Below are positions 24,297 through 26,658 of a stretch of DNA of 26,658 nt, piece by piece. The notes under the pieces are model-generated. The model saw only the letters and a program-made list of their open reading frames with translations. It was not told the DNA's origin and made no database searches. This DNA comes from Candidatus Binatota bacterium (GTDB lineage: Bacteria > Desulfobacterota > Binatia > Bin18), in the NCBI GenBank assembly GCA_011523315.1, contig WTHE01000457.1:1-26658 (forward strand), written 5' to 3'. Made by a program: the position numbers and the translations under genes. The stretch's first letter is position 1; each line of letters opens with the position of its first letter.

Positions 24297-25106
24297 ATGC
24301 GCATTATTTCGTGCAATCTCAACGGTATCCGCTCGGCCGCCCGCAAAGGATTTTTTGTCTGGCTGGCAGACCAGCAGCCCGACCTGGTGTGTGTCCAGGA
24401 GCTGAAAGCCCAGGAGGCCGATCTGTCCCCCGCTCTGCTCCAGCCCCCGGGTCTGAGCGGATATTTCCATCCGGCCGAAAAGCGCGGCTATTCCGGAGTC
24501 GGGGTGTATGCCCGGCGTCCGCCAGACGCCCTGCGCTGCGGCTGGGGCCACGCCGATATCGATGCCGAGGGACGCTACCTGCGGGCCGATTTTGGCCGGC
24601 TGAGCCTGGTTTCGCTGTACCTGCCGTCGGGGTCGAGTTCAGAGCAGCGCCAGGCGGCCAAGTATGCGTTCATGGACCGCCTCCTTCCCGAGCTGCGCGC
24701 GCTGCGGGCCAGTCGCAGACACGTGGTGGTGTGCGGAGATTGGAACATCGCCCATACCCAGAAGGATTTGAAAAACTGGCGCTCGAATCAGAAGAATTCG
24801 GGTTTTCTGCCCCAGGAACGGGAGTGGCTAACGGGTGTCTTTGACGAGGTCGGCTTTGTGGATGTGTTCCGACGCCTGAATCACGAACCCGAGCAGTATA
24901 CCTGGTGGTCAAACCGGGGGCAGGCCTGGGCCAAGAACGTTGGCTGGCGGCTGGACTACCAGATTGCCACCCCTGGCCTGGCGGCCAAGGCTCGCCAGAC
25001 GTGGATTTATAAAGACCGGCGCTTTTCCGATCACGCGCCGCTGATTATTGATTACGACTACGAGCTTGCTCCGGCTCGCAAAAAACGGGCTGGTCGTGCG
25101 GCCTAG
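24297..25106 (+). CDS. xth: Exodeoxyribonuclease III / AP endonuclease
   Basis: NLNGIRS, QELKA, GYSGV, CGDWNIAH, YTWWSNRG, GWRLDY and SDHAP motifs. SD AGGAAGG. Confidence 0.95.
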   Translation: MRIISCNLNGIRSAARKGFFVWLADQQPDLVCVQELKAQEADLSPALLQPPGLSGYFHPAEKRGYSGVGVYARRPPDALRCGWGHADIDAEGRYLRADFGRLSLVSLYLPSGSSSEQRQAAKYAFMDRLLPELRALRASRRHVVVCGDWNIAHTQKDLKNWRSNQKNSGFLPQEREWLTGVFDEVGFVDVFRRLNHEPEQYTWWSNRGQAWAKNVGWRLDYQIATPGLAAKARQTWIYKDRRFSDHAPLIIDYDYELAPARKKRAGRAA

Positions 25107-26188
25107 TTCGAGTCCGTGCGGTCTGCGTTGAGCAAGTCCTGCAAACCCGAGGCGAACAGCCCGGCGACGCTGTGGGCGATCAACTCGGGCAGCTCGTGCG
25201 GCCGACAGCCGGAAGCCGCAGGGTGGCCACCGCCGCCGAACATTTGGGCCAGCTTGGACAGGTCAGCCCGGCAGTCCGGAGAGCGGCGTAAACTGATCCC
25301 CCCGTTTTTGCGATCATAGAAGACAAAGACGGTATTGGTCGCCTGTTTGCCCCAGCTGTCCCCGATTTCGCTCGGATAGCCGTCACACACCGCGCAGACC
25401 AAGCTGCTGCCGTCCGGCCCCACCCGCCGGACTCTGCTGCGTTGGGCCAGGGCGAAACTGTCTTTGATCTCGCGGGTCGATTGCTCGTAGGCCGCCTGCA
25501 TGGCCGGGCTGTAGGTGACGTCGGCGTCAATATCGAGCAGGGCGTGGTAGGCGTCGAGATTGTCGTCGTCGGTGCCGGCCAGGGTGCTGACGGTCAAGGC
25601 CAGCTCACGCGACCCGGGGATGGCGTGTATCCACCGGTCGTTGTCATCGGCCTGGGCCACAACCGGCGCAAAGGCGCGAAACGCCTCGTTGGTTTTGCCG
25701 CTGGCGTCCAGCTGCCGCTCCAGATATTCGTACACCAGGCGGGCGCCCGACACGGCCTCGTTCAGCTCATAGTCGGTGAAAGGCGCATGAATCGCCCCAC
25801 TGGCATGCCGGGCGATAGCCGTCCGGTGGTGGTCGAACCAGTACAGCTTGACGCCCTTGGTCGCGAGTTGTCGCAGGTGGGCGTTGGTCGCTTCCTCGGT
25901 CCACGAAATATCGGTGATCCACACCTCGCTGCCCGCCGGGGTGTGCTCCGGGCTGATTGAGCACAGCACCTGATCAATGCGGCTATTCGAGGCAAAGCGG
26001 GGAATCAGCCGAGCCCCGTCCCGGTAGCGGGCAACCGCCACCGCTGCGGCTACGCCGTCCAGACAGCCTGGACCGTGACTGACGATATAGACGCACGGAG
26101 CGCCGGATTCGGGACTGTTTACGCGTTGCATAGGGGGTGTATTATCGGGTGCCTCGACCCGGACTGCGGCCCGGGCCGGGTATGTCAT
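25103..26188 (-). CDS. DHH/DHHA1-family phosphoesterase (NrnB/oligoribonuclease-like)
   Basis: SHGPGCLDG, ITDIS, FDHH, DDNDRW, SLR and GGGGHPAASG motifs. Start placed at ATG 26188, just after the upstream small ORF; 26131 is also possible. Convergent 4-nt overlap with xth. Confidence 0.85.
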   Translation of the reverse strand: MTYPARAAVRVEAPDNTPPMQRVNSPESGAPCVYIVSHGPGCLDGVAAAVAVARYRDGARLIPRFASNSRIDQVLCSISPEHTPAGSEVWITDISWTEEATNAHLRQLATKGVKLYWFDHHRTAIARHASGAIHAPFTDYELNEAVSGARLVYEYLERQLDASGKTNEAFRAFAPVVAQADDNDRWIHAIPGSRELALTVSTLAGTDDDNLDAYHALLDIDADVTYSPAMQAAYEQSTREIKDSFALAQRSRVRRVGPDGSSLVCAVCDGYPSEIGDSWGKQATNTVFVFYDRKNGGISLRRSPDCRADLSKLAQMFGGGGHPAASGCRPHELPELIAHSVAGLFASGLQDLLNADRTDSN

Positions 26189-26201
26189 GGGCTGGCGCAG
26201 C

Positions 26202-26375
26202 TCAGCGGGTCCGAACGGTGTAATCGCACGATTTGCTCTCGCACGCCCAGTAGAAGCCTTTCTTCGAACCAAAACCCGCGTACTGGACAACCCGAGCGCT
26301 TTCTTTACACACTGGACAGGGGCGTTTGTGCTGCGAATCTTTGTCTTTTCTGGCGCCTCTTCCTCTTTCGGCCAT
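26202..26375 (-). CDS. 57-aa basic four-cysteine (zinc-ribbon-like) protein, not in the ORF track
   Basis: My translation: MAERGRGARKDKDSQHKRPCPVCKESARVVQYAGFGSKKGFYWACESKSCDYTVRTR*. SD AGGAGGA lies 5 nt before the ATG, with a promoter upstream. Confidence 0.8.
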   Translation of the reverse strand: MAERGRGARKDKDSQHKRPCPVCKESARVVQYAGFGSKKGFYWACESKSCDYTVRTR

Positions 26376-26410
26376 GGGTTTCCTCCTGATGTCCAGGGAC
26401 GGACTGTCTC

Positions 26411-26439
26411 AGCATACGCATCTCGACCACGTCTGCCAA
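26411..26439 (-). promoter_or_regulatory. Sigma70-type promoter for the small four-Cys ORF and DHH gene
   Basis: Minus strand TTGGCA (26439-26434), 17-bp spacer, TATGCT (26416-26411). Confidence 0.55.
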
Positions 26440-26477
26440 GCCCGCCCGCATCGCTTGCCGACGGGTGACGTGGTCCT

Positions 26478-26502
26478 TGTCACACCGCGACCGGGTGTGA
26501 CA
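26478..26502. promoter_or_regulatory. 9-bp inverted repeat TGTCACACC-N7-GGTGTGACA, candidate operator
   Basis: Arms at 26478-26486 and 26494-26502, 10 nt upstream of ATG 26513. The function is inferred. Confidence 0.4.
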
Positions 26503-26512
26503 CAACAGGCCC

Positions 26513-26658
26513 ATGCTGGTTGATGGCCATGATCTCGTCCAGGCGCTGTTTCGGTGGCTGCATATCCTGGCCGGCGTGACGTGGATCGGTCTGCTGTATT
26601 TCTTGACTTTCATCCATGTCCGACTCAGCCCCGCGCTCCGCAGCCAGCTGCTCTCTCA
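26513..26658 (+). CDS. Membrane protein resembling the N-terminus of the urate hydroxylase PuuD family (3'-truncated by window edge)
   Basis: My translation: MLVDGHDLVQALFRWLHILAGVTWIGLLYFLTFIHVRLSPALRSQLLS... The RWLHxxAGxxWIG pattern is recognisable, but only 48 codons are visible. Confidence 0.5.
   Translation, partial: MLVDGHDLVQALFRWLHILAGVTWIGLLYFLTFIHVRLSPALRSQLLS

Follow-up and report, generated by a model that had tools for sequence, protein, structure and literature searches.

The 57-codon frame close to the end of the window (the whole 26,658-nt stretch of DNA analysed here, a contig of Candidatus Binatota bacterium) is a genuine conserved gene of the uncultured class Binatia, and it is under purifying selection. 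It encodes a microprotein of 6.5 kDa, which we read as a stand-alone zinc ribbon remotely related to the Zn_ribbon_Top1 domains (PF01396, also Topo_C_ZnRpt) of topoisomerase I and most likely binding single-stranded nucleic acid, a reading to which we give somewhat better than an even chance. Zinc binding, nucleic acid binding and any partnership with c3, a protein encoded directly downstream outside the window's genus, are predicted properties. Binatia are an abundant lineage of uncultured soil bacteria.

The Gene and its Expression Signals

The coordinates of the gene, its signals and related features are collected in Table 1. An earlier note on this DNA had described a 57-aa ORF with the knuckles CPVC (C20/C23) and CESKSC (C45/C50, Cx4C), an AGGAGGA ribosome binding site and a TTGGCA-17-TATGCT promoter, and all of these are present, with the sequence exactly as quoted. 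The basic N-terminal tail and the aromatic residues to which it drew attention are equally borne out: the protein has a pI of 9.75 with 14 Lys and Arg residues against 6 Asp and Glu, the aromatic strand F41-Y42-W43 directly precedes C45, and neither F41 nor W43 varies among the 18 sequences of our alignment A1.

The promoter hexamers match the consensus at 9 of 12 positions and lie within the 137-nt gap between the start of the microprotein gene and the divergent Urate_ox_N-type gene. They form the sole promoter-like site on the minus strand of the region, where a scan of the two strands gave 2 such sites and shuffles predicted 0.3. Transcription is predicted to start near 26404. A scan of the microprotein region against Rfam gave zero RNA families. 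Two further long, overlapping minus-strand frames were rejected as genes, namely 25103-26290, since conservation of the DHH protein begins at the ATG at 26131, and 26305-26613, which runs antisense to the Urate_ox_N-type gene. The window also carries a string resembling GACAAGGACC ~40 nt ahead of its -35 hexamer; several genera share a conserved element, GACAAGAACCCTTGACAG, that overlaps the -35 hexamer ahead of the microprotein-c3 operon (upstream regions of loci L011-L020). GC content at third codon positions is 0.59 in the microprotein gene, 0.80 in the adjoining DHH gene and 0.63 over the window, and the low value of the microprotein gene could be due to the small sample, to expression-related codon choice or to relocation.

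Table 1. Positions of the microprotein gene, its signals, its neighbors and related features. Positions without a prefix refer to the window; L, C and G prefixes denote other loci, contigs and genomes.
Feature	Position	Strand	Remarks
Microprotein CDS, 57 aa, stop included	26202-26375	-	ORF read-out; exact match to the quoted sequence
Codon of ligand 1 (C20)	26318-26316	-	
Codon of ligand 2 (C23)	26309-26307	-	
Codon of ligand 3 (C45)	26243-26241	-	
Codon of ligand 4 (C50)	26228-26226	-	
Shine-Dalgarno AGGAGGA	26381-26387	-	ATG at 26375 begins 5 nt further on
-35 hexamer TTGGCA	26434-26439	-	
-10 hexamer TATGCT	26411-26416	-	17-nt spacer to TTGGCA
DHH/DHHA1-like phosphoesterase gene	25103-26131	-	DHH E 1.7e-4, DHHA1 E 5e-4, both below curated cut-offs
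Exonuclease III family gene (xth-like)	24297-25106	+	Exo_endo_phos E 4.8e-32; convergent with the DHH gene
Urate_ox_N-type membrane-protein gene	26513-26658	+	Divergent; start only, cut by the window end
Urate_ox_N-type gene, full-length orthologue	L022:3252-3863		PF06181 E 2.9e-17
c3, own genome	L063:1462-1821	-	Same as contig C307:7471-7830
c3, further locus	L028:4184-4516		
c3 promoter in a genome without detected microprotein (G025)	L075:1400-1535		Resembles the promoter of the microprotein-c3 operon
Microprotein homologue, family f14	L069:1317-1493	+	Also in L070
Homologue without ligand 2	L033:4001-4162		
Cys-less bL32	G000:C661:1687-1857		
Cys-less bL32	G001:C1:1533706-1533876		
Cys-less bL32	G007:C1:1387147-1387317		
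bL33 and bL31 matches	L114-L119		

Conservation and Distribution

Intact single-copy homologues were found by six-frame search in 31 of 41 related Candidatus Binatia genomes, counted with the family profile at E <= 1e-3, and a single-protein query likewise gave one strong, uninterrupted match in each of 31. Within the genus, pairwise dN/dS (Nei-Gojobori, for pairs with measurable dS) lies between 0.04 and 0.36 and is typically ~0.2, one exceptional pair of two close sequences standing at 0.63. Both comparisons had been suggested by the earlier note, and both came out in favor of the gene. The conserved protein starts at ATG or GTG at the identical alignment position in every locus, and a GGAGG-type Shine-Dalgarno motif stands 5-8 nt ahead of this start in all 19 loci inspected; ahead of the conserved start, the open frame continues with a translation that is not conserved between loci. 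The promoter hexamers are kept in 6 of the 7 other genomes of the window's genus, and other genera carry TTGACA-17-TATCCT at the equivalent position. It is on the intact single-copy homologues, the low dN/dS and the conserved start, Shine-Dalgarno motif and promoter that the reality of the gene rests.

The extent of the family became visible only by exhaustive profile search. A word-index homologue search returned two close clusters only, and the profile search over 1.84 billion representative proteins gave 55 clusters at E <= 1e-3, 20 of them at E <= 1e-10, with nearly all representatives being 53-66 aa long. Longer proteins were also searched for the domain and yielded two singleton relatives only (125 and 249 aa), so the domain stands alone. 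Among 201 sampled genomes of the phylum, the microprotein was found only in class Binatia and one other family, f14, in which it occurs in 2 of 2 genomes and c3 is absent. The f14 genomes are 1.9 Mb in size with a GC content of 42 %; their homologue is distant and adjoins a thiC-like gene, in one genome together with an integrase-like gene. A metagenome scan with the distant microprotein subgroup gave no matches, and a second scan recovered further Binatia-type microprotein-c3 loci and nothing else.

These data also decide on the reading that the frame is non-functional, having arisen by chance or acting as a regulatory upstream ORF whose peptide sequence is irrelevant. The frame is short, it sits just upstream of another gene, and a high-GC genome favors long chance frames; yet its amino acids are conserved class-wide with 15 invariant residues in A1, its putative ligands covary, and to these are added the dN/dS and the representative clusters given above. 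Because of this conservation, we take the reading to be already refuted and leave it next to no probability.

Family Signatures and Putative Metal Ligands

The residues invariant in A1 are M1, A2, C20, P21, C23, Q31, G34, F35, G36, K39, G40, F41, W43, C45, and T56. In the wider family, represented by profile A2, the recurrent motifs are the N-terminal MAEKKAKTA, CPxCG, a V-V-x-[FY]-A-G-[FY]-G hairpin, G-F-[FY]-W-x-C, the second knuckle and, usually, a C-terminal RTR. In A2, W43 reaches at least 90 % conservation, and nearly all members have Phe or Tyr at residue 42.

The earlier note had pointed to homologues conserving the four Cys as the evidence to look for, and the family does retain them in large part: ligands 1 and 3 do not vary, ligand 2 is kept in at least 90 % of the sequences, and either Cys or a compensating His serves as putative ligand 4. 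Among ~110 unique sequences, the fourth ligand is a Cys in 55 (Cx3C in 31, Cx4C in 19, and Cx2C in 5), and where this Cys is missing a His stands two residues later (n = 35; Cx5H in 33 and Cx3H in 2). All 9 of the A1 rows that lack the fourth Cys carry this His. Such an exchange of Cys and His at ligand 4 is the pattern predicted by a metal site.

In a few relatives, ligand 2 has been lost and the remaining ribbon kept, the first knuckle then reading CPMSG, CPTGG, or CPNGG (the L033 match in Table 1, P0006, P0044, and P0055). These could possibly be metal-free variants. Given these few relatives, the fold may not require zinc in every member, and the dependence on metal may have loosened in some of them.

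Predicted Fold and Proposed Kinship with Topoisomerase I Ribbons

AlphaFold2, run on A1, models the microprotein as a four-stranded ribbon with strands at residues 17-19, 26-32, 40-45, and 52-55, a core pLDDT of ~80 and a disordered N-terminal tail. AGFG forms the turn between strands 26-32 and 40-45, in keeping with the YAGFG hairpin-like segment that had been proposed from the sequence. Of the structural check suggested at the same time, the fold half succeeded, but no significant structural match emerged, the best Foldseek hit against the PDB having E 0.35 (Rpa12, with Rpa12 and Rpb9 in the top rows). The wide VIA-align search also gave nothing significant (best Z 3.8), and the weak matches of the model in Foldseek and VIA are exclusively zinc-ribbon folds. 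The PDB profile search with the microprotein reached a best E of 0.085, and the nearest ESM Atlas clusters are unnamed hypothetical proteins. Scans against Pfam and NCBIfam gave nothing above threshold, with Pellino_RING (E 0.006), zf_CopZ, and YdjO as sub-threshold noise. A search of the literature on Binatia plus zinc found nothing relevant.

In bacterial topoisomerase I, the Zn_ribbon_Top1 repeats make up the C-terminal domains that bind ssDNA. PF01396 repeats were cut from the TopA genes of the same genomes and then aligned (A7), and hhalign of A2 against A7, a comparison of a short Cys-rich domain with a few chosen families, gave a probability of 89.7 % and E 1.9e-6 over 35 columns with 4 of 4 ligands aligned. 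In this alignment, the G-x-aromatic-x-x-C strand of the microprotein pairs with the invariant G-K-F-L-x-C of TopA, and residue 42 falls on the invariant Phe of the TopA repeats. The score of 31.3 was reached by none of 200 full-column and none of 200 Cys-fixed A7 shuffles (means 10-11, sd ~3, maximum 22.1), and four control comparisons stayed at 0.4-1.5 %, three of them pairing the microprotein profile with the DksA finger, with c3, and with bL32, and the fourth pairing c3 with the Top1 repeats. Since the match beats every shuffle and every control, it argues for a remote kinship of the Top1 type. Direct searches remained below threshold: the window protein had zero hits to PF01396 even at E <= 10, 5 of 30 family members hit it with a best E of 0.018, the microprotein lying below the curated cut-off of 32 bits, and a six-frame whole-genome scan with PF01396 (E <= 0.01) returned TopA repeats only. 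As judged by profile alignment, the microprotein family is thus a remote, uncatalogued relative of Zn_ribbon_Top1, and a member of it neither by Pfam threshold nor by the usual architecture.

The likeness covers the order of the ligands and the strand that carries the aromatics. Both the microprotein and the Top1 ribbon have CxxC followed by C-x(n)-C in a four-stranded ribbon (C20-x2-C23 and C45-x4-C50 in the microprotein), a Gly and an aromatic on strand 3 just ahead of the third Cys, and a β2-β3 turn of basic or aromatic character; in Zn_ribbon_Top1, the first two ligands are spaced by two residues, and the third and fourth are further apart (PMC9369019). On the other hand, the microprotein is a lone single domain, whereas Top1 ribbons are tandem repeats ending a type IA topoisomerase. 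Its hairpin is longer, with 21 residues between the knuckles, its fourth ligand alternates between Cys and His, it does not have the second Top1 knuckle C-x-x-Y-P-x-C, and it bears signatures unlike Top1, namely the MAEKKAKTA tail, GFG..KGFFW, and the C-terminal RTR.

In E. coli topoisomerase I, the ribbons bind ssDNA mainly via pi-stacking on a conserved aromatic of strand β3 and on residues of the β2-β3 turn, with additional contacts from Arg and Lys (PMC4678816; motif described in PMC9369019). The microprotein keeps F41, F/Y42, and W43 on the β3-equivalent strand and F35 in the turn. By analogy, the 6.5-kDa ribbon, predicted to comprise two knuckles (CPxC and C-x3-5-C/H), four β-strands, a disordered Lys/Arg-rich N-terminal tail and the invariant aromatic hairpin (GFG..KGF[FY]W), would let bases of ssDNA or RNA stack on the aromatics of strand 3 and the preceding turn, and the tail would contribute electrostatic contacts to the nucleic acid. 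Binding of single-stranded nucleic acid appears the most likely function, given the aromatics of this strand, F35, and the Lys/Arg-rich tail.

Comparison with Other Zinc Ribbons

The zf-GRF domains of APE2, NEIL3, and TOP3A are ssDNA-binding zinc ribbons of eukaryotes and share with the microprotein the small ribbon and a Gly-basic-aromatic motif before the third ligand. APE2 belongs to the ExoIII-family nuclease class, and in the window's genus an ExoIII-family nuclease gene is found two genes away from the microprotein gene, with xth on the opposite strand and the neighborhood being genus-specific. The model matches the APE2 Zf-GRF structure 5u6z at VIA Z 2.3, which is within noise. In zf-GRF (PF06839), the first knuckle has one residue between the ligands (PMC9369019), whereas CPxC of the microprotein has two, with K-G-F in place of G-R-x-F, and no Pfam zf-GRF hit is listed among the family members.

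Archaeal CPxCG microproteins such as the HVO_0758 family are alike in size and in the CPxCG knuckle, and Elf1 has the same succession of a basic tail and a ribbon. An ESM Atlas feature search placed clusters of the HVO_0758 family and of TFIIS type at 0.90-0.91, a range that shuffled proteins also reach. The matches to the TFIIS/Rpb9/Elf1 type are weak (Rpa12 at Foldseek E 0.35 and PDB profile E 0.17; 1qyp at VIA Z 2.5 and 1wii at Z 2.1), and for the HVO_0758, TFIIS, Rpb9, and Elf1 families no Pfam hit passes the threshold.

Conceivably, the microprotein could also be a small zinc protein of the ribosome, or one associated with it, that is specific to this lineage. It is small and basic, its gene has a strong Shine-Dalgarno motif and promoter with RNA-modification genes nearby, one relative carries the JGI name 'ribosomal protein L37AE/L43A', and the PDB profile search gives weak hits to eS31, eL42, and eL43 (E 0.14-8). 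Descent from bL31, bL32, bL33, or bL36 was rejected: the relatives possess all four, so the microprotein is no diverged orthologue of them, it has no Pfam hit to them, and hhalign against bL32 gives 0.9 %. Moreover, the gene lies outside any ribosomal-protein operon, and seven good-quality Binatia genomes lack a detectable copy, all of which makes a ribosomal role improbable.

The Ancestral Operon Partner c3

Outside the window's genus, all 49 Binatia-type loci examined have the microprotein gene immediately ahead of c3, with a gap of 0-90 nt and some TAAATG stop-start junctions, and the pairing holds even where the upstream neighbors differ. There the pair is divergent from ttuB (ThiS-like), ttuA, and trmI and convergent with a gene for a pseudouridine synthase of rluA/rluD type. 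In the ancestral arrangement, the microprotein gene opens a two-gene operon with c3, and in the window's genus it has moved ahead of the DHH/DHHA1 gene. Insertion of ttuB-ttuA as the event that displaced the microprotein was considered and rejected, many loci holding both.

The c3 protein (110-125 aa) combines a basic tip at its N-terminus with an acidic segment, a helix, and a part of the pattern CxxC-x3-CH...CxxC. Its mean column identity amounts to 66 %, and its core is nearly invariant. Neither Pfam nor a PDB profile search provided a relative, and its AlphaFold2 model, at pLDDT 54, is unusable for a fold search. A DksA/TraR-like factor was rejected, as 0 of 16 c3 sequences hit PF01258 at E <= 1; genome scans give one canonical DksA per genome, which is never c3, and hhalign of c3 against DksA gives 2 %. 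All 27 good-quality Binatia relatives possess c3, and the microprotein was found in 20 of them. The seven genomes that keep c3 and in which the microprotein was not found belong to families f2, f4, f6, f8, and f11; in these, a similar promoter leads straight into c3, and there is no small ORF upstream. A promoter of this kind, resembling that of the microprotein-c3 operon, precedes c3 in G025 (Table 1).

The linkage invites the alternative that the microprotein is a protein-protein adaptor which docks onto c3 or RNA polymerase and modulates that partner rather than binding nucleic acid. Such an adaptor would fit the unbroken position ahead of c3, TAAATG junctions included, and the persistence of this linkage through changes of upstream neighbors; topoisomerase I C-terminal domains have been reported to touch the β' subunit of RNA polymerase (PMC4678816). 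Against it, c3 is more widely retained than the microprotein, the two genes are on separate contigs in the window's genus, and the conserved exposed aromatics and the basic tail suit nucleic acid binding better. We regard an adaptor as possible but doubtful. Any partnership with c3 must in any case be dispensable, because c3-only Binatia genomes exist and the window's genus unlinks the two.

Another, unlikely, scenario is that the microprotein and c3 form a Binatia-specific two-protein zinc module that acts on RNA together with the neighboring tRNA T-loop modification genes. The module would be, for example, a substrate-presenting or specificity factor for ttuB-ttuA-trmI and the rluA-type pseudouridine synthase, and the microprotein would be its single-strand-binding subunit, lost in some families and redeployed beside the DHH/DHHA1 nuclease.

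Arrangement in the Window's Genus

In the window's genus, the microprotein gene, with its own promoter, stands between the Urate_ox_N-type and DHH/DHHA1-like genes, and c3 is found on a different contig (C307), between an rluA-type gene and ttuB-ttuA-trmI. The DHH gene begins 70 nt after the microprotein stop, no terminator-like site was seen between them, and the two are probably co-transcribed, in this genus only. The DHH/DHHA1-like gene, which encodes a putative divergent NrnA/RecJ-like phosphoesterase, is conserved class-wide (34 of 41 genomes) and is located elsewhere in other genera.

The sole bL32, bL33, and bL31 matches in this genus are Cys-less, zinc-independent forms (Table 1), and in the sister genus g8, bL32 (G014, G020) and the bL33 of G014 keep CxxC...CxxC. 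The Cys-less ribosomal proteins could be a sign of zinc economy, even though the genus keeps the Cys4 microprotein. One could then suppose that the microprotein handles zinc or redox state, be it as metal buffer, chaperone, or thiol switch, and plays no part on nucleic acid, given the Cys4 site at its core, the Cys-rich partner c3 and this hint of zinc economy. A single structural site per 57 residues makes a poor buffer, though, neither a Zur box nor metal-transport neighbors were seen, and the aromatic hairpin, the basic tail and the Top1-type similarity would be left unexplained; we therefore hold such a role to be very improbable.

Annotation Status and Significance

The earlier note had supposed that the gene was likely missed by annotation pipelines, and here it was mistaken: the exact 57-aa protein has already been called on 12 contigs (NCBI, JGI/IMG, ENA, Logan). 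Relatives are deposited as 'hypothetical protein' (e.g., MCE2483909.1 and MGE0825227.1), and a few JGI entries bear the names 'Elf1' or 'L37AE/L43A', which are unsupported. As the gene is real and already called, the gap in annotation is functional rather than one of gene finding.

The practical consequence is modest. The microprotein and c3 mark a locus conserved across the class Binatia, and the exchange of Cys for His together with the occasional loss of ligand 2 offers a natural series on how zinc ribbons lose their metal. On the kinship proposed from profile comparison, the analysis adds an uncatalogued family of bacterial microproteins, with no entry in Pfam, NCBIfam, or PDB, to the topoisomerase-I-type zinc-ribbon superfamily, and it would mean that a Top1-type module can occur by itself, as a 6.5-kDa protein whose gene has a promoter of its own.
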